Below, one piece after another: positions 2,332 through 58,743 of a stretch of 64,000 nt of DNA; position 1 is the first letter of the stretch; every line of letters starts with the position of its first letter. The position numbers and the translations under genes are program-made. The notes under the pieces are model-generated. The model was not told where the DNA came from and did not search any database. It was given only the letters and a program-made list of their open reading frames with translations. Source of the DNA: Alphaproteobacteria bacterium (GTDB lineage: Bacteria > Pseudomonadota > Alphaproteobacteria > UBA9219 > RFNS01); assembly GCA_037200005.1 (NCBI GenBank), contig JBBCGY010000001.1, positions 42,416-106,415 of the forward strand, read 5' to 3'.

Positions 2332-3892
2332 ATGGCGCAAGCGAAAAAGGCAAAGAAACAGGGCGGCAATGGGGCTAATTTGGGGTTTGAAGCCCAGATG
2401 TTCCAAGCCGCCGACAAAATGCGCGGCAGCATGGATGCCAGCGAATATAAGCATGTCGCCCTGGGACTGATTTTCTTGAAATATATCTCCGACGCTTTTG
2501 AAGCCAGACATGCGACTGTCAAAGCGGACGGCGAGGACCCGGAAGACCGCGATTTTTATATCGCGGAAAATGTCTTCTGGGTTCCCAAAGAGGCCCGATG
2601 GAACCATCTACAAGCGAATGCCAAGCAACCGACCATCGGTAAATTGATTGATAATGCCATGCTGGCGATTGAGTCGGCGAATGCCTCTTTGAAGGGGGTT
2701 TTGCCAAAGGATTATGCCCGCCCAGCCCCTCAACAAACAAATGCTTGGCGAGCTGATCGACCTTATCAGCGGCATCGGGATGCATGAGGGCGCAGGCAAG
2801 AGCAAAGATATTCTTGGGCGCGTTTACGAATATTTCCTCGGTGGCTTTGCCGGAGCCGAAGGCAAGCGCGGCGGTGAATTTTATACGCCGCGTTCCGTAG
2901 TCATGCTGCTGGTTGAAATGCTGGAGCCTTATAAAGGCCGCATCTATGACCCTTGCTGCGGTTCGGGCGGCATGTTCGTTCAATCGGAGAAATTCGTGCT
3001 GGCGCATGGCGGGCGCATCGGCGACATCGCCATCTATGGCCAGGAAATGAATAACACCACATGGCGCTTGGCCAAAATGAATATGGCGGTGCGCGGCATT
3101 GACACGGATATTCGCTGGAACAATGAAGGCAGCTTCCATAAAGATGAATTCAAAGACTTGAAGGCCGATTATATCCTCGCCAATCCACCGTTCAACGTAT
3201 CGGATTGGGGAGCGGATCGCCTGCGCGAAGATGTGCGGTGGAAATACGGCTTGCCGCCTGCTGGCAATGCCAACTACGGCTGGCTACAGCATATCATCCA
3301 CCATTTAGCGCCGAATGGCGTTGCCGGCGTTGTGCTGGCCAATGGCAGCATGTCTTCCAATCAGTCCGGTGAAGGCGAAATCCGCAAGGCTATGATTGAA
3401 AAGGATTTGGTCGATTGCATGGTGGCCTTGCCAGGGCAGCTATTCTATTCAACCCAGATTCCGGCCTGCCTGTGGTTCTTGGCGCGGAACAAAAAAACAT
3501 CGCATCCGCGCAATCGCAGCGGCGAAGTCTTGTTCATTGATGCCCGGAAAATGGGTGTCATGATTGACCGCACCCGCCGTGAGTTAACGGAAGATGACGT
3601 TAAGAAGATCGGCGCTCTCTATCATGCCTGGCGCGGTGAAAAAGACGCCGGGAAATATGCCGACATTCCTGGTCTTTGCAAGGCGGCAAAGTTGGATGAA
3701 GTCTCCGGTCATGGCTTTGTCCTCACCCCTGGCCGCTATGTCGGCAGCGAAGCGGTGGAAGATGACGATGAACCGTTTGAGGTGAAATTTCCCCGACTGG
3801 TTGTTGAGTTGGAAAACCAGTTTGAAGAAAGCGATAAACTCACTGCCCAAATTCGGCGGAATCTGACTTTGTTGGGAGGGTCGCAAAAATGA
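2332..3892 (+). pseudogene. hsdM: type I restriction-modification methyltransferase subunit HsdM, frameshifted
   Basis: The HsdM N-terminal domain (ORF 2332..2787) and the methylase core (ORF 2714..3892) lie in different frames. Core motifs include [15 protein letters not shown] and NPPFN. Removing one C from the C4 run at 2726-2729 gives a continuous ...[19 protein letters not shown]... Confidence 0.85.
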
Positions 3893-8503: not shown

Positions 8504-11500
8504 ATGGTCGCTGACATTCAATACACCCAGCCGGAACCGAATTATGACGGATTCCGCGAAGCGCATGTTGAAGAAGCAACTTTCGATTGGCTCTCTGGGC
8601 TTGGCTGGACACTCGCGCATGGGCCGGATTTGGCACCGGAAGGCAAAGCCCCGGAGCGGGCCAGTTATGGCGACGTGCTGTTGTTGGGGCGGTTGAGGAC
8701 AGCCTTGGCCGCGATCAACCCGCAACTCCCCGCCGATGCGATTGACGACGTGGTGCGTAAGATTATCGCAGTCGAAATGCCGTCTTTGGTCGAAGAAAAC
8801 CGGCGCTTGCATAAACTGATGGTCGATGGCGTGGCTGTGCAATACATGCAGGCCGACGGCACGATCAAAAACGACATCGCGTGGCTGATCGACTGGGAAA
8901 ACAAAAAGAACGATTGGCTGGCCGTCAATCAATTCACGGTCATCGAAGAACGCAACAATCGCCGCCCCGACGTGGTGATGTTTATCAACGGTTTGCCCCT
9001 TGCCGTTATTGAATTGAAGAACGCGGGAGACGAAAACGCGACAATCGAAGGCGCGTTCCGCCAGACGCAAGCTTACAAGCAATTGATCCCTTCTCTGTTT
9101 CGCACGAACGGCATACTGATTATTTCCGACGGACTGAAAGCCCGCATCGGCAGCCTGACCGCAGATTATGAGCGTTTCATGCCATGGCGCACGGTGGATG
9201 GGGCCGGTGTCGCGGCCAAAGGAACGCCCGAATTACACACAATGATTCACGGCGTTTTTGAGCAAGGGCGTTTTCTGGAGTTATTGCGCCGGTTCACCGT
9301 GTTTCAAAGCAACGGCAAAGATATTTTCAAAATCGTAGCAGGATATCACCAGTTCCACGCCGTAAAGCTCGCCGTTGCCAGCACCATCGACGCAACGGCC
9401 AGTGAAGGAAATCGCAAAGTCGGCGTCATCTGGCATACGCAAGGATCGGGCAAAAGCCTGTTGATGGCATTTTATGCGGGCAGCGTGATTGCCAATCCTG
9501 CGATGGCCAATCCGACTCTGGTTGTGCTGACCGACCGGAATGATCTGGACGACCAGCTTTTTTAACACTTTCAGCCTATCTCGTGATCTTATCCGCCAGA
9601 CGCCCGCGCAAGCGGGAGATCGCGATGAATTGCGGAAGCTTCTGGCGGTATCATCTGGCGGCGTTATCTTTACGACCATTCAAAAATTTCTGCCCGCTGA
9701 TAGTGAAAAAACTTTCCCGCTGTTGACTGACCGCAAGAATGTCATCGTCATCGCCGATGAAGCGCACCGCAGCCAATATGGCTTCAAGGCCAAGTTGGAT
9801 AAAAAGTCGGGCGAATTAGCTTATGGTTTTGCGAAACACCTGCGCGATGCGCTGCCGAATGCGTCCTTCATTGGCTTTACAGGAACGCCTATTGAGAAAG
9901 CAGATGTCAATACGCCCGCCGTATTCGGCGATTATATTGATGTCTATGATATTCAACGCGCGGTCGAAGACGGCGCGACGGTGCCAATCTATTACGAAAG
10001 CCGCCTAGCCAAACTCCAGCTTGACGAAGAGGAAGTCAAAAATCTTGATGCTGAGGTCGAAGAACTGACCGAAGACGAAGAATCCAGCGAGCGCGAGCGT
10101 AAGAAAAGCAAATGGTCGCGCGTTGAAGCCCTGTGGGAGCCGAAACACGCTTGGCTCAAGTAGCCGCCGATATTGTTCAGCATTTTGAGAACCGTATCAG
10201 CGCCTTAGACGGCAAAGGCATGACCGTATGCATGAGTCGCCGTATTTGCGTGGCGCTCTATAACGAGATTATTAAATTACGGCCCGCATGGCATTCAGAC
10301 GATGACGCGCAAGGCGCTATCAAGATTGTGATGACGGGCAATATCGCCAACGATCCGCCTGAATGGTTGAAACATACGGGCAGCAAGGCGCGCCGTGATT
10401 TCCTGGCAAAGCGGGCGCGCGACGCTAAAGACCCGCTAAAACTTGTTATCGTTCGTGATATGTGGCTTACGGGCTTTGATGCGCCCTGCATGCACACGAT
10501 GTATGTCGATAAGCCGATGCATGGTCATGGCTTGATGCAGGCCATTGCCCGTGTAAATCGCGTATTCCGCGACAAGCCAGGCGGCTTGATCGTTGATTAT
10601 ATCGGGATTGCCCATAATCTGAAACAAGCTCTCTCTATTTATTCCCCCGGCGACCGCGAAGAAGTCGGCATTGACGAGCAGCAAGCCGTCGCAGAGATGA
10701 TGCGCCGCTATGAAATCGTCCGGGATATGTTTTATGGATTCGATTATATGCGCGCGCTGCACGGCACACCGGCTGAACGCTTAGTGCTGATGGCCGAGGC
10801 TCTGGAGTGGATTCTCGATTTGCAGCAACGTGAAGCTGCAAAAGAACAGACCGAACAAGCCAGGAAAGAGGTGCGCCGCAAATTCTCAGACGCCGTTGTT
10901 GGCTTATCGCGCGCCTATGCGCTGGCCGCAACCTCGCCAGAAGCGGGGAAAATTCGTGATGAAGTCGGTTTCTTCCAGGCTATTCGTGCAGCCCTGGCAA
11001 AAAATGAGCCGGGCAAAGGTAGCACACAGGCGGAAATCGATGTGGCCGTCCAACAAATGGTCAGTCGTGCCGTGGTGTCAACGGAGATTGTCGATATTCT
11101 GGCGGCGGCAGGCATTAGAACCCCGGATATATCCATCCTCTCAGATGAATTTCTGGCAGAAATTCAAGGCATGAAGAAGCGTAACCTTGCATTGGAAGCC
11201 TTACAGAAACTCATCAATGGAGAAATAAAATCCCGCATCAAATCGAACGTGGTGCAATCTAAGAAATTCAGCGAACGACTGGAAGCCGCCGTCCGGCGCT
11301 ATCATAACAACGCTATAACTGCCGCGCAGCTTTTGGAGGAGCTGATTGCCATCGCAAAGGATATTAAAGCTGACCGCGAACGAGGAGAAGAACAAGGACT
11401 TAGCGAAGAGGAAATCGCTTTTTATGATGCTCTGGCTGAAAATGAAAGCGCATTGCAGTTGTTGGGCGATGAGAAATTACGAGTGATTGCTACTGAACTG

Positions 11501-11680
11501 GTTGTCTCCGTTCGCAATAATGTGTCTGTTGACTGGATGCACCGCGATAGCGCCCGCGCCAAGTTGCGCATCGAAGTCAAAAAGATTCTCAAGAAATATG
11601 GCTATCCGCCAGATTTACAGGATGCAGCGGTGCAACTGGTGTTGCAGCAGGCCGAAGTTTTGGCCCCACTCTGGGCATAA
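8504..11680 (+). pseudogene. hsdR: type I restriction endonuclease subunit HsdR, two frameshifts
   Basis: Three consecutive ORFs (8504..9565, 9540..10163, 10133..11680) each carry bona fide HsdR sequence (DEAH box DEAHRSQYG, helicase C, C-terminal domain). An extra T in the T6 run at 9558-9563 gives DQLF*. A missing G near 10131-10136 makes expected ...[13 protein letters not shown] read EALWEPKH. Confidence 0.85.
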
Positions 11681-25584: not shown

Positions 25585-25776
25585 ATGAGCCAGGAAGCAT
25601 ATCGCGTGAAAGAATTCTGCAACCGCTACGCCATTTCAAAAGCCAGCTTCTACCGGGAAACAGCGGCGAAGCGGCTGCATATCCTAAAACGTGGCCGTAC
25701 AACGCTCGTTGCCCGCACCGAAGCCGAACGCTGGTTTGAAAGCCTTGGCCAAGGCCAGCCGCAGCAATCAGCCTGA
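25585..25776 (+). CDS. excisionase/AlpA-like small HTH DNA-binding protein (63 aa)
   Basis: SD AGGGAGGA. The pattern YRVKEFCNRYAISKASFYR...RWF resembles MerR-superfamily excisionases. It lies immediately upstream of the integrase. Confidence 0.65.
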   Translation: MSQEAYRVKEFCNRYAISKASFYRETAAKRLHILKRGRTTLVARTEAERWFESLGQGQPQQSA

Positions 25777-25843
25777 TCGCATTCAATATCCCGAATATTT
25801 CCAAAGCCATTTTTCGTCAATCTTATTCTCATGGAGGCATGTC

Positions 25844-27031
25844 ATGCGCCATACGGGACATATTCGCCAGCGTTCAGAAGGGAGTTTCGAGCTTCGCTAT
25901 AGCATCGGCACCGATCCGGTCACGGGAAAATGGAAAGTCAAAACCGTCACCGTTAAGGGAACGCGCAAAGCTGCCGAGAAAGAATTGCGCCGCATACTCG
26001 ATGCAATCGATGACAATGATTATGTCGAACCCAATAAAATCACTACCCGTGATTTTTTGACACAATGGCTTGAAACAATGCGTTCCCAGATAACCCCCAA
26101 ATCCTATGAAAGCTACGCTGAAATAGTCGATAACTTCCTTATCCCAACTCTTGGCGGTCATATTCTGGCGAAACTTGCTCCGGCTGTTATCCAAAAAGCC
26201 TACAATGGATGGGAAGCTGGTGGCCGCAGGGATAAAAAGGCGGGCGGGCTGGCGGCGCGTTCCCGTCTCTATATCCACCGCATCCTTAAATCGGCACTCA
26301 AACATGCCGTGCAAATACAGCTAATCGCCCGCAATCCCGCCGACGCGGTTAAAGCGCCGCGCGTCAAGAAAGCCGCCATAACTACATTGACCGTGGATCA
26401 ATCGGCGGCGCTGCTCGATGCCCTGTCCGGCAAGCCGCTTTATTGGCCTGTGTTGCTTGCCCTAACAACGGGCATGCGCCGGGGTGAAATTCTGGCGCTT
26501 CGCTGGAAGAATATCGACTTTGAAAAGAAAACTGTTCGCGTCGTCGAAAGTCTAGAGCAAACCAACACAGGCATTCGCTTCAAGGCTCCGAAAACGGAAC
26601 GGAGTCGTGCCGTCATGTTGCCGGATTATGCCGTTGAAGAACTGCGGAGACTGAAAAAAGAACAGGAGAAAAAATTGTCGGAATCAGGAATCGGCCAAAC
26701 CACTGAAACGCTGGTTTGCGGTCGCTATGACGGCGAACCGCTATGGCCTACCTCACTTACGCATGAATTCGTGAAGGCCATGAAGAAACTGCCGAAACTG
26801 CCGCGCGCCAGATTCCATGATTTGCGCCATTCCCATGCCACGCAACTCCTGACAGCAGGAATCCATCCCAAAATCGCGCAAGAACGGCTGGGACATACCA
26901 CGATTACGACAACCCTAGACCTCTATTCCCATGCGACGGACACCATGCAAGACGAGGCTGCATCAAAGCTCGACAATGCCTTCCGTTCTGCTATAAAGGC
27001 CCGTTCCGACCAAGCGCCACGACTAGGATAA
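25844..27031 (+). CDS. int: tyrosine recombinase / phage-type integrase (395 aa)
   Basis: ATG follows GGAGG. Catalytic signature: RRGEILALRW, HDLRHSHAT, LGHTTITTTLDLYSH. Confidence 0.9.
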   Translation: MRHTGHIRQRSEGSFELRYSIGTDPVTGKWKVKTVTVKGTRKAAEKELRRILDAIDDNDYVEPNKITTRDFLTQWLETMRSQITPKSYESYAEIVDNFLIPTLGGHILAKLAPAVIQKAYNGWEAGGRRDKKAGGLAARSRLYIHRILKSALKHAVQIQLIARNPADAVKAPRVKKAAITTLTVDQSAALLDALSGKPLYWPVLLALTTGMRRGEILALRWKNIDFEKKTVRVVESLEQTNTGIRFKAPKTERSRAVMLPDYAVEELRRLKKEQEKKLSESGIGQTTETLVCGRYDGEPLWPTSLTHEFVKAMKKLPKLPRARFHDLRHSHATQLLTAGIHPKIAQERLGHTTITTTLDLYSHATDTMQDEAASKLDNAFRSAIKARSDQAPRLG

Positions 27032-27111: not shown

Positions 27112-27187
27112 GACCTTGTAGCTCAGCCGGTAGAGCATCTGACTTTTAATCAGGGGGTCGCGGGTTCGAACCCCGCCGAGGTCACCA
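27112..27187 (+). tRNA. tRNA-Lys (anticodon UUU), CCA encoded
   Basis: Manual cloverleaf. Acceptor GACCTTG/CGAGGTC, D arm GCTC-AGCCGGTA-GAGC, anticodon loop CTTTTAA, T arm GCGGG-TTCGAAC-CCCGC, discriminator A, CCA. Confidence 0.9.
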
Positions 27188-27220
27188 GCTATAAACGGAC
27201 TTTTAAGTCCGTTTATAGCT
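27187..27220 (+). terminator. perfect 34-nt palindrome immediately after the tRNA
   Basis: AGCTATAAACGGACTT-TT-AAGTCCGTTTATAGCT. There is no U-tract. Confidence 0.45.
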
Positions 27221-27268
27221 GGTTATGAAGTTGGGTTCGAACCCGCGACAAAATAACAGTCGGGTTCA

Positions 27269-51015: not shown

Positions 51016-51855
51016 TCACGGCGCCCCGCGCCCATGGCTTAAAGCGCCGGCATTGTCGATGCGAAGGCTGTGCTCGTTTTTATCGCCCGGAGATTTAAGT
51101 TGAACCGTCGTGGCGTCGATGAGCTGGACTTCGGTGCCATCGGCGAGCTTGTCGCCGGCGCGCACATTGATCGTCTTGCCGTCCTGCGCAGAATCCAGAT
51201 CGGCGCTGTATCTTCCGCCGGCGCCGACGATCTTGTGCACTTCATAATCCGCGGGCGAAACGGCCGATGGCGTCCGGCGCGGCGCGGAAGCCGAGGCAAG
51301 CTCGGTCACCGGCACGGCCAGAGAGGCCTTTTGCATTCCCCTGGGCATTTTCGTGACGCCGGAGGGCAGCATGGCGCCGACTTCGCTCGCCATGTCGTCC
51401 CCGCCCTCGCGCTTGGCGCGAGCTTTTTCGAGATCATGCATTTTCTGCTCGAGTTCCAGCAGAAGATCGAGGCGCGCCAGCGCTGCGCGCGCCTGATTCA
51501 TGTCTTCGAGGCTGAGATCGATTTTTCCCGTCTCGAGCTTTTTCATCACGCTTTTAACCTGATCGGGAATTTCCTTGTCTTCGCCGGTCCCATCAGTCGC
51601 ACTAGCCGAAGCGGCTTTGGTTTCCTCGGTCGTCCCTACTCCCGGGCCGCCGGGAGGATGGGCGAGATTGATTCCGCCGCCGGGCTGTCCCGCCTGCGCG
51701 GGGATCGATGGCGCGGCCGATGATGCGGCGCCCGTCATGGCAGCGGTATGGGCGACGGCGAGATCGGTTACGGTCGTTTGGGCAAAAGCCATGGAAGACG
51801 CGGCGCCGAGGGCCAGCACAAAGGCCGGAAACCAAGATCTAAAGGCAATTCTCAT
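51016..51855 (-). CDS. pilP: PilP-like type IVb pilus biogenesis protein
   Basis: SD AGGAG. Signal peptide MRIAFRSWFPAFVLALGAASSMAFA. The C-terminal block YEVHKIVGAGGRYSADL...VRAGDKLADGTEVQLIDATTVQL fits the PilP family pattern. Confidence 0.6.
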   Translation of the reverse strand: MRIAFRSWFPAFVLALGAASSMAFAQTTVTDLAVAHTAAMTGAASSAAPSIPAQAGQPGGGINLAHPPGGPGVGTTEETKAASASATDGTGEDKEIPDQVKSVMKKLETGKIDLSLEDMNQARAALARLDLLLELEQKMHDLEKARAKREGGDDMASEVGAMLPSGVTKMPRGMQKASLAVPVTELASASAPRRTPSAVSPADYEVHKIVGAGGRYSADLDSAQDGKTINVRAGDKLADGTEVQLIDATTVQLKSPGDKNEHSLRIDNAGALSHGRGAP

Positions 51856-52129
51856 CCTACACTCCTTCGACCAGCCAGGGATCGTCCGATCGGTCAAACT
51901 TCTGATAAAGCCCCCAGGATCGGAGGCCCCATACCTAATCTGGGAAGTCGGTTCATCATCGGCGAATAGGGTTAAGTTCCCGTAAACATAGGCTTTATGA
52001 ACCTCGTGCCATTAACGAATGGTTATCGCCCTGCGGCAAGGCGTCAGTTTTGAAATCGGGCATGGAGGGGGATTGGCCTTCATGTCGGCCTAGACGCGGC
52101 GCGGCGCGGCGGCAGGGCGACAAAAAGCG

Positions 52130-53386
52130 TTATTTTCTGTTTTCGTAGATCACGCCGCTGATCTGCCAGCTTCCGCTCTGCGAGACGATGCTGTTGATGA
52201 TAACGCCGGGAACGCCGCCGAAATATTGCGGCAATTCGCCTGGTAAATCGGTAACCTTCAGCGTGAATCCGCGCTTGATCCAGGGCGTAGGCGGCGGATT
52301 CCAGTCTTCCGGCCGCACATTTTCCGGTTTCGGCGGCGGCGGATCGTCAGGCAGGCGCGAAATCGTGCCGTTCCAGTTCTGCGCCAGATAGCGTTTGGTG
52401 ATTTCCGCCGGATCGATCAAATCCTGGGGGCCGCGATTTTTCAGGCCCTCGATCGGCACGCCGCGCGAAGCGTTCGACCCCGATGGATCGATGGAGGCAT
52501 CGGCAAGGGGCTGAGTGTAGCCGACGATGCGGGTCCATGACAGCGACAGGCCGCCCTTCGCGCAACTTAATGTGCTAAGATTCCATCCCAGCCTCGCCTG
52601 CGGCACCTTGTCCAGCGCGACGCGGCACGCCTCTATCAATTCCAGAGGATGAGGCTCATCCTCCCAGAACCGCTTCGGCGGCGGATACGCGATCTGAATC
52701 GGACCGCCGAGACCCGCCGCTTTCATTTCGATCGCACGCTTCTGGGCCTCGATCCTGATCAATTCCCTTTGCGCTTCCTGCGCTTTTTCTTCCTGGTATT
52801 GGTAATACCAGAATCCCGCGATACCCAATACGACGACGAGCGCCGTGACGGCCACGCCGATAAGGATCGCGCGCGGTATCTTGACCGGCTGCAAGGGGCA
52901 GTCGCCGCGATTTTGCAGCACGAAGGGAAGCGCGACCGTTTCCGAAGCGGGAATCGACCATGCTTCAGGAGCATAGATGCGCTGCAGGCCGCCAAGCGTG
53001 ACTTCCTGGATAAGACGGTCGCGGGCGCTGGCGTCATCGAGATATATCTGGTCACCGTCCGGCGCGATCAAATCGTCGCGCACCACGATGACCACGATGC
53101 CTTCGCTTAACTTGAAGGCGCCCGCCCATGAACCCGGCAGCCGGTTGGCAAGCGACGCGGCCAAGGTCGCCATGCCGAGCTTGTGGCCGGATTGCTGAAG
53201 CCCCAGACCGAACTGGGCGACGCGGCCGCCCTTGACGCCGGGACGCACCGCAAAAAAGTCGGCGTGCTGGCCCGGCTGGCGCGCCGCCTCTTTAGCCGCT
53301 TGCGCGACACGGCCGCTCGGCGAAGGCTGCCAATAGAGGCCGACCGCGTATTTGCGCCGTCCGACTGTCGCGACGCCAGATCCCAT
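52130..53386 (-). CDS. pilO: PilO-like (PilO2-type) type IVb pilus biogenesis protein
   Basis: The N-terminus YAVGLYWQP... and a single mid-protein TM (ILIGVAVTALVVVLGIAGFWYY). Its position lies between the secretin and PilP. Confidence 0.6.
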   Translation of the reverse strand: MGSGVATVGRRKYAVGLYWQPSPSGRVAQAAKEAARQPGQHADFFAVRPGVKGGRVAQFGLGLQQSGHKLGMATLAASLANRLPGSWAGAFKLSEGIVVIVVRDDLIAPDGDQIYLDDASARDRLIQEVTLGGLQRIYAPEAWSIPASETVALPFVLQNRGDCPLQPVKIPRAILIGVAVTALVVVLGIAGFWYYQYQEEKAQEAQRELIRIEAQKRAIEMKAAGLGGPIQIAYPPPKRFWEDEPHPLELIEACRVALDKVPQARLGWNLSTLSCAKGGLSLSWTRIVGYTQPLADASIDPSGSNASRGVPIEGLKNRGPQDLIDPAEITKRYLAQNWNGTISRLPDDPPPPKPENVRPEDWNPPPTPWIKRGFTLKVTDLPGELPQYFGGVPGVIINSIVSQSGSWQISGVIYENRK

Positions 53387-53388
53387 TA

Positions 53389-53651
53389 GGGTCCAACCTT
53401 AATTAGAATGGGGTTTCGCGCAGGCGAAAAAGCCGCCCGGCTACGAAAAGACAGAAGCAGGTATCGGCGACTACCTGCGAGGTCTTTGAGAACGCCGGTC
53501 GGCTTTTTCGCCGCGCCCCTTGGGTATGCAAAAGAAGGCCGATCTGCGTTGTCGGCTTCGCTCGCCGTAGATTGACTACGGCTTCGCTCGCCTCCTAGCA
53601 TCTCAGCCTTCTTTTGCATACGAAACTCCCATTCTAATTAAGGTTGGACCC
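53389..53651. mobile_element. MITE-like non-autonomous element (263 bp) with TA target duplication
   Basis: The terminal inverted repeats (TIRs) GGGTCCAACCTTAATTAGAATGGG / CCCATTCTAATTAAGGTTGGACCC match over 26 nt counting the flanking TA, and over 32/33 with one gap. TA flanks the element at 53387-88 and 53652-53. Nested internal IRs: 53423-35/53500-12 and 53524-39/53606-21. There is no coding capacity. Confidence 0.75.
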
Positions 53652-55219
53652 TAGGGCTGCTCCGCCGAGGGAACGTCCAGCTCCTGCGGCGTAATGGCGA
53701 TAAGGAGAAGCTGTTTCGTCTTGGAATTGCCGATGCCGCCGCCGAGGAGATAATTATAGGGATTGATGGTTCCCGAGGCCGCTTGGCTGGTTTGATCCTG
53801 GCCGTAACCGGCAAGCACGAGCGTGGAACCGCTGCGCAGCAGGGATTGCTGCACGAAAACCCGGCTCGTGGTTTCCGGCAGCTGCACGCTGCTGGTCCCG
53901 GAGGTGAAGGCGGTGATTCGGACCAGATCGATCAGGTTCAGCGAATATTGCATGAGCACGCGTCCGTCGGCCAGCAGGCGCGGCGTCAGCTGGATCGAAA
54001 AACCTTCGCGCAGCGTGCCGGGCGTCAGCGTCGTGGTCGTCGTGCCGCTGGTTCCGGTCGTCGTCGTGGAGGACGAAGCCAGATAGGCGATATCGCGTCC
54101 GACCCGGCGCGTAATGGTGCGCCCGTTCAGCGTCGTCATCGGGAATTGCGCGACCCGCACATTATGCGAGATCTTCGATATCGCCCGCAGAACCGAGTCC
54201 GCCGACACATTGGCGTTGTCGATGATGCCGATGGTCAGATTGCTGAAATCCGCCACGTTGGTCGCGAAAGCGGGCGCGGCGACGCCGGCGAAGGTGAAGG
54301 GCTTGATGGTCTTCAGCGCCGCCGTGAGCTGGTTGTTGAAATCGTCCTCGTTATCGATCTCGGCGGTGTAAATTTCGACATTGATGGCAAGCTGGCGGAC
54401 AAGCCGCTTGTTTTCCTCGGCGACATAATGCGCTATGCTCTTCATGATTTCAGGCGTCGTCGTCACGGTGATGGTGCCGACCGCGGGCGAAATCACCGCC
54501 GTGCCGGTGCCGCCGAGAATGGAATTCACGGTATTGCCGATCTCGGCCCACATATCGATATCGGCCTTCATTTCGATTTCTTGCTTCAGGCTGTTCGAGC
54601 CGGCTTCCGTGGGGATGGAATCCTCAAATTTGCCCTTGCCGGCCATGACCTCGACCAGAAATACGCGCGTCTCGTAACGGCTGAAAAGAATCGCGCTGCC
54701 GTCATAGCGCCAGTCGACGCCGAACCGCGAACTGGCGTGATCCAGAAGCCCGGAAAGCGGCCCCTCATAAGCGACGCTCATCGTATCGCCGGCATCGGCC
54801 ACGGGAGCGCCCGCGCCGCGGGCGACGACGGGCACTGCCGCGGAAGCGGAAGGGCCGGCCGGAACGCCGGGTCCCAGACGGACCGGAATGCCGGTTTGGC
54901 TGGAAAGCGTCGAGGCGATATCGCCCAGCGACTGCGGCGTGCGCGCGACGAACGTCACGCCCTTCGCCGTCTCATATTTTTCGGGAAGCGGCAGCCCTCT
55001 ATGCAAGCGCACCGCCTGGCTTCCCACCCAAAGCCGGTCGGTCACGACGAGCGGATTGCTTTTGAAGGGAGGCAGGGGCTGCTGGGCGCGGACGAGATTT
55101 TGTTCGACTTGCTGCGCCTTCTGTTCGATTTCCTCGCGTACCGCGCCCGTATCACAAGCGGCGACGGCACAAACAACCGCTACTAAGAACAGGTTCCGCA
55201 GTTTCATCATTCTTTCCAT
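53651..55219 (-). CDS. pilN: type IVb pilus secretin lipoprotein (R64 PilN family)
   Basis: Lipoprotein signal LVAVVCAVAAC. The C-terminal region is secretin-like (LVLAGYGQDQ...). Its position is in pil synteny. Confidence 0.7.
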   Translation of the reverse strand: MERMMKLRNLFLVAVVCAVAACDTGAVREEIEQKAQQVEQNLVRAQQPLPPFKSNPLVVTDRLWVGSQAVRLHRGLPLPEKYETAKGVTFVARTPQSLGDIASTLSSQTGIPVRLGPGVPAGPSASAAVPVVARGAGAPVADAGDTMSVAYEGPLSGLLDHASSRFGVDWRYDGSAILFSRYETRVFLVEVMAGKGKFEDSIPTEAGSNSLKQEIEMKADIDMWAEIGNTVNSILGGTGTAVISPAVGTITVTTTPEIMKSIAHYVAEENKRLVRQLAINVEIYTAEIDNEDDFNNQLTAALKTIKPFTFAGVAAPAFATNVADFSNLTIGIIDNANVSADSVLRAISKISHNVRVAQFPMTTLNGRTITRRVGRDIAYLASSSTTTTGTSGTTTTTLTPGTLREGFSIQLTPRLLADGRVLMQYSLNLIDLVRITAFTSGTSSVQLPETTSRVFVQQSLLRSGSTLVLAGYGQDQTSQAASGTINPYNYLLGGGIGNSKTKQLLLIAITPQELDVPSAEQP

Positions 55220-56713: not shown

Positions 56714-56762
56714 AGGAGGGATAAAACCGATTCGTGATTCATACTACGTTATAGTCAGTCCG

Positions 56763-56962
56763 CTTGAAAACCCGAAAAAACTCCGTCGCGCCTACCCCGT
56801 CATTAAGGAGGAAACCCATCGCGAGCGCGACATAGATTTTTCGGATTTTTAGGCGGACGTCATCCACATCACTTGAAAACCCAAAAAATATTCTGTCGCA
56901 TCCGCATGGCTTTACTGCTTGGGGGAGAACGATGGCGACGGAATATTTTTTGGGTTTTCAAG
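56763..56962. repeat. three copies of a 27-28-nt motif CTTGAAAACCC[GA]AAAAA..T.C.GTCGC (two direct, one inverted)
   Basis: Copy A at 56763-56789, copy B at 56872-56899, copy C (inverted) at 56935-56962. B and C match 27/28 and are separated by 35 nt. Confidence 0.8.
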
Positions 56963-57115
56963 CCAAGTAACTATAGGAAATAGCCGGAAAAGCGCCATGA
57001 GAAAACAACAATTTTCGACTTTTCCCCAGAAGCAGGCGTGACATGGGTGCAACGGACGGTGAACAACAAAGATTAACGGATAGATAAGCGGGAAACAAAC
57101 CGCTCGATAGCGGCT

Positions 57116-57513: not shown

Positions 57514-58743
57514 TTATACGTCCGTCGTTACGGTATCGTTAACGGCTTGCGTCGCCAAAGGCTCGAAATTCTGGTCTTCCCGTTCGTCGCCGGAGAAGCC
57601 CTTGGTAAGCAGCAGATACCAGCGGCGATCGATCAGCCCCGCCTTGAACGCCGATGTCGCCGATTGTTCCATGGTCTTGCCGTAGCGCACGAGCAAACGC
57701 TGGGCCTCGCTGGTCCAGCGCTCGATCGGCATATCAAGCAGAATTTCGCGGACATTCTCGTCAAAGATCATGAATTCGCGCAATCCCATGCGGCCGCCGC
57801 CGACTTTAGGCACGAGCGCCTGCGTGACGATCATGCGCAGCGTTTCCATCAGGGCGAAAGCGCGCTCGGAACGCTCGGAGGGCTCAAACACGCTGACCAT
57901 GCGTCGAATGGTGGCCGCCACCCCGGTCGTATGGGCCGTGGAATAGACCGCGTGGCCGGTTTGCCCTGCCTCAATGGAGGCCGAGACCGTTTCGCGATCG
58001 CGCGATTCGCCGACCAGGATAATGTTGGGCTTGCGGCGCAGCGCGTTGCGCACCCCGGCCGCGAAATTAGGCAAATGCTTTGGGATTTCCGATTGCGAAA
58101 CCAGCGACCGCTCGCCGACGATCGAATCGTACACATATTCGATCGGGGCTTCATAGGTCAGCATCTTGCCGCAGCCCTGAGCCCGCTCGATCAGCATCCG
58201 GTTGCCCGCGGCAAGCAATGTCGATTTGCCGCTGCCGGTCGGTCCCGTCACCAGGATCAGCCCCTGGCGCGGCGCCCAATTATCGATGATTTTTTCCTCG
58301 ATCCCCAGTTCGTGCATCGTCGGGGGAAGATTGGGCAGCGACCGCATGGTGATCTGCACCCCGTCCCGCCCTCTGCTCAGCATGGCCGTGATGTTGACGC
58401 GAAAACGGTAACGCGTGTTGCGATCGGGCCTAACCTCGTAGGACAAATCGAGATCGACGCCCGACGCAAGCTTGGCGATAGCGTCCTGGCCGTAAATTTT
58501 GGCCAGGACATTGGCCATATCCGCCGAATCGATCGATCGCCTGGTTATCGGAAACAGGACGCCGTCGACTTCGATATAAACCGGGCGGTCGGTTTGAATG
58601 CTGACGTCGGTGGTGCGCCGCTCGACGCACCACATCAGCAGGCCGTCGACATGCTCTTCGCGAATGCGCAAAGGCTCATCGGTCCAGGTTCCAAGCTCTT
58701 CGCTTTTGCGCCTGGCATCCGCTAGCGTAGCGTCGACTGCCAC
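57514..58743 (-). CDS. dotB: DotB/TraJ-type (PilT-like) T4BSS ATPase
   Basis: Walker A GPTGSGKST, Walker B ILVGESRD, TAHT His box. Synteny dotD-dotC-dotB. GTG start overlaps dotC by 22 nt. Confidence 0.8.
   Translation of the reverse strand: MAVDATLADARRKSEELGTWTDEPLRIREEHVDGLLMWCVERRTTDVSIQTDRPVYIEVDGVLFPITRRSIDSADMANVLAKIYGQDAIAKLASGVDLDLSYEVRPDRNTRYRFRVNITAMLSRGRDGVQITMRSLPNLPPTMHELGIEEKIIDNWAPRQGLILVTGPTGSGKSTLLAAGNRMLIERAQGCGKMLTYEAPIEYVYDSIVGERSLVSQSEIPKHLPNFAAGVRNALRRKPNIILVGESRDRETVSASIEAGQTGHAVYSTAHTTGVAATIRRMVSVFEPSERSERAFALMETLRMIVTQALVPKVGGGRMGLREFMIFDENVREILLDMPIERWTSEAQRLLVRYGKTMEQSATSAFKAGLIDRRWYLLLTKGFSGDEREDQNFEPLATQAVNDTVTTDV

Follow-up and report, generated by a model that had tools for sequence, protein, structure and literature searches.

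The analysed stretch of DNA, referred to here as the window, comprises 64,000 nucleotides of an uncultured alphaproteobacterium (assembly GCA_037200005.1, contig JBBCGY010000001.1, positions 42,416 to 106,415 of the forward strand) and carries a chromosomal R64/IncI-like type IVb (thin) pilus and Dot/Icm-type (type IVB secretion) cluster, in which a 263-bp element resembling a miniature transposable element with inverted repeats (MITE) separates the secretin gene pilN from pilO2 (hereafter pilO). The pil genes around the 263-bp element are all located on the minus strand, with the genes for a T2SSE ATPase, a T2SSF platform protein and PilS/bundlin-like prepilins found 3' of pilO, and TcpQ-like, IcmT-like, TraI(DotC)-like and DotD genes found 5' of pilN. 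The ATG of pilO is retained at 53386-53384, its product showed 100% query coverage against 120 homologues in a protein search, and pilO and the pil genes downstream of it are all full length. The two flanking genes and the parts of the element are listed below in window coordinates; an earlier reading of the window, made from its letters alone, is called the original prediction.

53651-55219, minus strand: pilN-type secretin gene (Pfam Secretin and Secretin_N_2), C-terminus ...AEQP* unchanged, stop codon now TAG
52130-53386, minus strand: pilO2, type IVb pilus accessory protein gene, full length (Pfam PAP_PilO, 4e-25, full coverage)
53389-53651, unstranded: MITE-like element of 263 bp, with perfect terminal inverted repeats (TIRs) and TA/TA flanks, absent from the homologous junction in ten related loci
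53387-53388, unstranded: TA copy on the pilO side, giving TAATG on the pil strand with the A of ATG
53652-53653, unstranded: TA copy on the pilN side, completed by the TIR's terminal G/C (53651) to the TAG at which pilN now ends
53389-53412, plus strand: pilO-proximal TIR, GGGTCCAACCTTAATTAGAATGGG
53628-53651, minus strand: pilN-proximal TIR, 100% complementary to the other arm
53413-53418, unstranded: outer-stem extension GTTTCG, six nucleotides pairing with 53621-53626, with T53627 as a one-base bulge
53419-53516, unstranded: 98-nt hairpin (arm A) whose 19-nt arms match at 95% (53423-41 / 53494-512), which the original prediction had described as an interruption
53524-53621, unstranded: 98-nt hairpin (arm B) whose 24-nt arms match at 88% (53524-47 / 53598-621)
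53457-53478, minus strand: 7-bp hairpin on the pil strand at the arm A tip, resembling a terminator and preceding UUCUGUCUUU, with no more than a weak match to the consensus (1 observed, 0.9 expected from shuffles)
53386-53619, minus strand: 77-codon frame inside the element, with GGGAG 6 nt before its ATG, sharing its TAA with the TAATG, and with no coding signature

The ends of the element exhibit a perfect inverted repeat of 24 nt, or of 26 nt when the flanking TA is counted (53387-53412 / 53628-53653), and self-alignment extends it to 32 of 33 positions with one gap (GGG-GTTTCG / GGGAGTTTCG). Exactly two occurrences of the 24-nt TIR, inverted relative to each other, are present in the window, where 0 are expected (100 shuffles), and no further occurrence was detected there with up to 6 mismatches allowed. 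The GC content is 55% in the element and 46% in the TIR, against 62% in the flanking genes. The pil strand reads ...GAG CAG CCC TAG GGTCC...GGACCC TAATG GGA..., in which TA and the TIR's first G form the TAG that ends pilN, TAATG is restored for pilO by the second TA, and 267 nt lie between the pilN stop and the pilO start. The descriptive claims of the original prediction, including the 263-bp element, the TIRs, the TA flanks, the rebuilt TAG and the retained pilO ATG, were all confirmed on the sequence, and two of the repeats proved longer than it had stated. The inner inverted repeat is present, but the 13 bp assigned to it were too short, as it spans 19 nt at 95% (53423-41 / 53494-512); the 14-nt direct repeat of arm B (53553-66 / 53579-92) is exact and surrounds a 7-bp tip hairpin; and the 24-nt repeat at 88% (53524-47 / 53598-621) had not been described. 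The left arm had been taken as nested, and the interrupting hairpin (arm A) is real, but its later insertion into the left arm of a 160-bp foldback, although possible, is indistinguishable from a built-in three-way junction, and a designed junction of this kind accounts for the interruption just as well. Arms A and B showed no detectable kinship (local score 19 versus 14.8 ± 2.3 in shuffles, with 37 of 500 shuffles reaching 19), and no free-standing copy of either was found by blastn against plasmids and the fetched loci. The terminator-like hairpin at the tip of arm A is no more than the chance expectation. Inside the element the pil strand showed no sigma-70-like promoter; on the plus strand arm B contains a sigma-70-like match (TTGACT-18-TAGCAT, 9/12, 53572-53601), a consensus match only, directed away from pilO and antisense into pilN.

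The homologous junction was compared among related pilus clusters. The only entry 100% identical to the window PilO was MEJ0061700.1, from an alphaproteobacterial metagenome-assembled genome (MAG), with the next relatives 63-71% identical, and the comparison set consisted of ten related loci representing seven distinct sequences with PilO 67-71% identical, which are lineages and not strains. Gene order is identical in all ten. The stop of pilN and the start of pilO are +1, 0 or -1 nt apart in these relatives and a spacer is never present, the junctions being GAGCAACCATAAcATGGG, CCCTAAATGGG or, in locus L024, GAGCAGCCTTAATGGGT; L024 has a TAATG junction (CCTTAATGGGT). When the element and one TA are taken out of the window, GAGCAGCCCTAATGGGATCT remains, and the reconstructed junction ...GAGCAGCCCTAATGGGA... 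(empty-site string CCCTAATGGG) is of the same type as that of L024. After this in silico excision the flanking coding sequence aligns without interruption and the C-terminus of PilN, EQP*, is unchanged, the relatives ending in ...LEQP*. Because the junctions of the relatives are free of a spacer and excision restores TAATG as in L024, the 263 bp is, judged from these junctions, an insertion with a 2-bp TA target duplication. The original prediction had placed an insertion with TA duplication at the TA of a TAATG overlap and had proposed a comparison with empty sites, and both the site and the duplication are upheld by the tight empty junctions of the seven distinct relatives, one of them with TAATG; it had also named a 263-bp intergenic region conserved in related clusters as the first half of the finding that would contradict it, and all seven distinct junctions are empty. 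Landing in TAATG is elegant but expected of a TA-targeting element, since a genome of ~62% GC offers few tolerated TA sites, stop codons among them.

Other lengths of target duplication were considered and rejected. With 3-, 4- or 5-bp duplications (IS5/Harbinger TWA, Tn3-type 5 bp), symmetric ends leave the unequal flanks CTA/TAA and CCCTA/TAATG, and a zero-duplication reading, with the TA belonging to the element, would strip pilN of its stop, yet all relatives have TAA. The Tn3-derived TIMEs are defined by 38-bp GGGG... inverted repeats and a 5-bp duplication, whereas the 5-bp flanks CCCTA and TAATG form no repeat here and the inverted repeat measures 24-32 nt.

The same junctions bear on the idea of a native element, a structured RNA or an intergenic regulator particular to the lineage that was gained by recombination and not by transposition, such as an RNase III processing or stability module or a small RNA gene. 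In favour of this idea, the predicted structure of the 263 bp is extremely stable and the operon contains other unusual spacers (the foldback at 56750-56975 and the 274-nt pilO|pilP spacer). However, it is absent from all related clusters, and its arms are perfect exactly to the duplicated TA while its removal restores a relative's junction, which is a signature of transposition and not of gradual evolution. Rfam 15 at the gathering score returned only the tRNA at 27112-27184 in the window and none in the element, and at E up to 10 the element obtained only a spurious microRNA hairpin match (26 bits versus a gathering score of 82). A native RNA origin is accordingly very improbable.

An assembly artefact, either a foldback chimera or a misjoin, was also considered, and small indel errors do occur elsewhere in the NCBI contig, in which 2 indels that set it apart from the Logan contig break up hsdR. 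The element is nevertheless identical in two same-sample assemblies, GCA_037975565.1 (contig JBBCBH010010965.1, at about 818946-819208) and Logan SRR28211700_59379, the Logan contig matching the window at 100% identity over 12,126 nt with the element included. The NCBI and Logan assemblies differ elsewhere by two indels in 10.5 kb and are therefore not copies of each other. Moreover, the 263 bp is not copied from neighbouring sequence and both flanking genes are intact and in register, making an artefact extremely improbable.

Two further observations concern the assemblies as such. The type I restriction genes of the window are seemingly frameshifted, with hsdR in three open reading frames (ORFs) and hsdM in two (8504-11680 and 2332-3892); in the Logan contig of the same sample (L029 versus L030) hsdR is intact, with at least 1058 amino acids, and its splits are thus assembly indel errors and not pseudogenes, while hsdM is split in both assemblies. 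The Logan contigs L002 and L028 end at 58228-58255 with a 28-nt overlap inside a DotB-like ATPase gene, so that the k-mer assembly breaks there and not at the 263-bp element, and a repeat or strain variation is possible at that position.

The element is read here as a non-autonomous MITE-type DNA transposon that entered the single TA of ...CCC-TAATG-GGA... between pilN and pilO2 by cut-and-paste, with the TA duplicated and both frames left intact, and this reading is given a probability of about 0.7. Four of five generic features of bacterial MITEs were observed, namely TIRs, a target duplication with filled and empty sites, small size without a transposase gene, and a stable predicted stem-loop. 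Duplications of 2 bp are also made by some groups of the IS5 family of insertion sequences (IS). TA duplication is a hallmark of IS630/Tc1-mariner transposases (PMC2170065), and the mobiliser was most likely a TA-duplicating DDE transposase of this type acting in trans, an assignment that is suggested by the TA duplication and by no other feature. Bacterial MITEs are known for TIRs, 5'-TA-3' termini, target site duplications, long stem-loop transcripts that affect neighbouring mRNAs, and frequent open frames (PMC2229807; PMC2649163).

Several observations weigh against this reading. The fifth feature, repetitiveness, leans negative: no second copy of the element was detected in the 64-kb window or in the adjoining stretches of 8 kb and 10 kb (~82 kb of a 1.83-Mb contig); the 20-mer of the TIR gave one chance match, inside an acs-like gene, among 185,579 GTDB representative genomes; its 18-mer gave 9 chance matches in JGI metagenomes, on contigs of 30-44% GC, without extended identity or an inverted partner; its 16-mer gave chance matches only in IMG/VR; and blastn of the whole element against plasmids and phages returned nothing relevant. 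The Logan contig, furthermore, crosses the element unbroken. Logan contigs are built from a de Bruijn graph with k=31 and break at repeats, and if k is indeed 31 the unbroken contig argues against other near-identical copies in the sample. No transposase was detected by Pfam scans of all 58 non-overlapping ORFs of at least 90 amino acids in the window, in which one integrase was found, and neither a transposase nor a parent IS was found among the genes called in the 18 kb of flanking sequence; the original prediction had likewise reported no transposase in the window. In addition, classical bacterial MITEs are smaller than 200 bp (PMC2229807), whereas the window element is larger (263 bp), less AT-rich (55% GC) and more elaborate (a three-way junction), and the functional consequences described below are all predictions from folding.

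The TIR alone was searched against plasmids at E up to 10 with nothing relevant found, none of the matches lying at the ends of any IS annotated there, blastn of the element against all fetched related loci found no copy, and a literature search with the TIR as a text string returned unrelated primer matches only. The element is thus an orphan and apparently single-copy, and the MITE family has one known member. A single copy with perfect TIRs and a duplicated TA is also what would be seen if a full-length, TA-duplicating IS had inserted here and lost its interior in situ, in which case the 263 bp was never mobile and always single-copy. The interior, however, is not a coding leftover but is built of two 98-nt hairpins, each self-complementary and stacked on the TIR stem, and no frame shows protein similarity: at E up to 10 the concatenated six-frame translation matched none of 5.8 billion proteins, a search that would also have picked up ORFs annotated in other copies. 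Such an organisation is typical of MITEs and not of random internal deletions, and an in situ deletion derivative is considered improbable.

Differential resemblance was observed between the MITE-type transposon proposed here and the known families of small elements. The Correia elements (CREE/NEMIS) of Neisseria share with it a small size, TA ends with TA target duplication, TIRs of ~24-26 bp and the lack of a known cognate transposase (PMC2229807; PMC2649163), and they are co-transcribed with their neighbours as a long hairpin that is bound or cut by RNase III, altering adjacent gene expression (PMC2229807; PMC2649163). They nevertheless measure ~105-155 bp, form a single hairpin and reach hundreds of copies per Neisseria genome, while the window element has 263 bp, a three-way junction, 55% GC, one known copy and an alphaproteobacterial host. 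The window TIR GGGTCCAACCTTAATTAGAATGGG shares only the terminal TA with the sequence that we take to be the Correia TIR. The window element would resemble the Correia elements in its working but is not a member of them. RUP of Streptococcus pneumoniae is likewise a MITE with TA target sites (PMC2229807), thought to be moved in trans by the IS630-Spn1 transposase on account of TIR similarity and TA insertion sites (PMC2229807). RUP has 107 bp, about 108 copies and an identified candidate parent IS, whereas neither a parent nor a second copy was found for the window element, and for this reason the TA duplication is the one feature that would link it to IS630. The ERIC/YPAL elements of enterobacteria and Yersinia are, like the window element, palindromic, intergenic inside transcription units, and present as filled and empty sites between relatives (PMC2229807); the hairpins in their RNA alter how stable the adjoining mRNA segments are, and many members contain open reading frames (PMC2229807). 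They are unrelated in sequence, multi-copy, and bounded by shorter TIRs (7 bp listed), unlike the window element. We know of no ERIC/YPAL element reported at a 1-nt stop/start overlap. The element is consequently not a member of the Correia, RUP or ERIC/YPAL families, with which it has no sequence relationship and from which it differs in host, size and architecture. Among larger transposons, IS870 uses the target CTAG to complete a stop codon, a parallel to the TA and G that make the TAG of pilN. The IS630/Tc1-mariner transposons (ISY100, IS630, IS870) are moved by cut-and-paste at TA with TA duplication (PMC2170065), as the flanks of the window element suggest for it as well. These transposons are autonomous, measure 1-1.4 kb and encode a DDE transposase, whereas the window element encodes none.

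Folding of the pil strand, which the original prediction had proposed, gave an RNA with a 32-bp outer stem and two 98-nt arms at a predicted free energy of -178 kcal/mol (z-score -15.6), and the DNA fold of the element reached a z-score of -14.8. The conserved GGAG found ahead of pilO in all relatives has moved 265 nt further away from its start codon. Within the predicted ensemble, the probability of being unpaired is ~0 for pilO positions -14 to -2, and the mean unpaired probability from -18 to +6 is 0.13, the unpaired part being the start codon, versus 0.30 in the reconstructed ancestral junction; with a ribosome footprint forced at the pilN stop, the mean rises to 0.28-0.42. With the ribosome-binding site of pilO predicted to be buried in the 32-bp stem, the effect on expression proposed in the original prediction is plausible.

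The sequence of events suggested by the fold is as follows. The element would be co-transcribed with the operon and fold into the 32-bp outer stem and two 98-nt arms, with the outer stem pairing the entire ribosome-binding region of pilO with the stretch just past the pilN stop. Since this region would be paired and the GGAG lies 265 nt off, independent initiation at pilO would be strongly reduced. Translation of pilO would then depend on ribosomes that complete pilN and open the base of the stem, since the pilN stop and the pilO start share the base of one helix and a terminating ribosome would melt the strand masking the pilO start. Such a mechanism would fall under the RNA-unfolding model of translational coupling reviewed in PMC12548453, of which phage f1 genes VII/IX and MS2 coat-lysis are examples, the downstream ribosome-binding site being locked in a hairpin, with the second strand within or beside the upstream ORF, and opened by the terminating ribosome (PMC12548453), as is predicted for pilO. 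The f1 and MS2 structures are evolved and span tens of nucleotides, while that of the window would be an accidental by-product of transposon inverted repeats extending over 267 nt. RNase III cutting of the long duplex may act in addition or instead, as the perfect duplex of 26-32 bp is a plausible RNase III substrate by analogy with the Correia elements (PMC2649163). The net effect is most likely that pilO expression would be attenuated and coupling-dependent, and not abolished or inactivated.

Two features that could favour preserved coupling were absent from the original prediction: the stop and start at the base of one helix, and a 77-codon frame with a Shine-Dalgarno sequence and ATG that ends on the TAATG. 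The GGGAG-N6-ATG of this frame is situated 31 nt past the pilN stop, and the frame is open to the rebuilt TAATG. In a post hoc test with 20,000 dinucleotide shuffles of the interior, the frame was open in 6.4%, was open with a suitably placed ATG in 0.35%, and had the Shine-Dalgarno sequence as well in 0.02%. The GC content at its third codon positions is 0.51, versus 0.73-0.81 in host genes, and indicates no coding adaptation; its own ribosome-binding site is paired, with an unpaired probability of 0.06; and it has no protein homologue and was called by no gene caller.

These properties may be read as a co-opted relay, in which ribosomes leaving pilN would reinitiate at the internal Shine-Dalgarno sequence and ATG, translate the frame, melt the structure, stop on the TAATG and re-couple pilO, so that the insertion would be nearly neutral or regulatory. 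The position of the start signal 31 nt past the pilN stop, the rarity of the full combination in the shuffles (0.02%), the commonness of open frames in bacterial MITEs (PMC2229807) and the intactness of all downstream pil genes are in keeping with such a relay. On the other hand, the test was post hoc and an open frame alone appears in 6.4% of shuffles, the third-position GC content and the paired ribosome-binding site do not suit a translated frame, no gene caller recognised it, and there are no other copies in which its conservation could be examined; a co-opted relay is therefore quite unlikely. A broader and still speculative proposal, unlikely but deserving slightly more credit, is that the inverted repeats of a TA-duplicating element turn stop/start overlaps of operons into safe landing sites, with coupling relayed over 267 nt by opening of the stem, by the relay frame or by both, and that the element would be a self-neutralising or tunable coupling adaptor instead of a polar mutation.

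Other features were observed in the same operon. At the pilO|pilP junction (51855-52132, minus strand) the genes are 274 nt apart in the window, while in six relatives the ATG of pilP lies 17-20 nt inside the 3' end of pilO (GTCGAAGGAGTGATCTATGAAAATCGCAAATAG). A decayed second copy of the pilO 3' end is found just before pilP (TGGCTGGTCGAAGGAGTGTAGGATGAGAAT, W L V E G V * in the pilO frame), indicating that the pilO/pilP overlap region was duplicated and split by the spacer. This spacer, a second opened junction in the operon, is unstructured (z-score -1.0), without TIRs and without an Rfam match. At the head of the pil genes, a second foldback of 226 bp (56750-56975, 46% GC) lies in the region upstream of the TcpQ-like gene; it is bounded by TATAG...CTATA and is made of two related hairpin units with the motif CTTGAAAACCCRAAAAA, whose arms measure 28 nt (96%) and 34 nt (82%), and its RNA fold has a z-score of -8.7. 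It exhibited no sequence kinship with the 263-bp element and no match in plasmids, and it aligns poorly with the relatives.

Outside the pilus cluster, the window begins with a low-GC island (1-27200, 45-56%) that ends at a tyrosine integrase (25691-27031) adjoining a tRNA gene (27112-27184) and carries a type I restriction-modification system, a Fic protein, a 1793-amino-acid RHS-repeat protein and Sel1-repeat proteins. At the last base of the tRNA gene begins a hairpin (27184-27223; ACCAGCTATAAACGGACTT / AAGTCCGTTTATAGCTGGT) of 19 perfectly paired bp and a 2-nt loop, which could be a terminator or part of the attachment site of the island. Beyond ~32 kb the GC content is ~58-66%, and this high GC is the host's own, since the housekeeping genes rsmB, CCA/poly(A) polymerase, upp, pepN and nhaA lie in this part.

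The intact genes downstream of the element are compatible with either a recent insertion, which the perfect TIRs suggest, or a tolerated one. The locus offers a clean natural case of a TA-targeting miniature transposon entering a tightly coupled gene pair with neither reading frame damaged. Should pilO be attenuated by the hairpin, a conjugative type IVb pilus machine of an uncultured alphaproteobacterium would have its stoichiometry altered; should the structure or the internal frame relay the coupling, the locus would be a simple model of long-range translational coupling made by mobile DNA; and otherwise it would be an ordinary MITE-type insertion, chiefly useful as an annotation note for the MAG.

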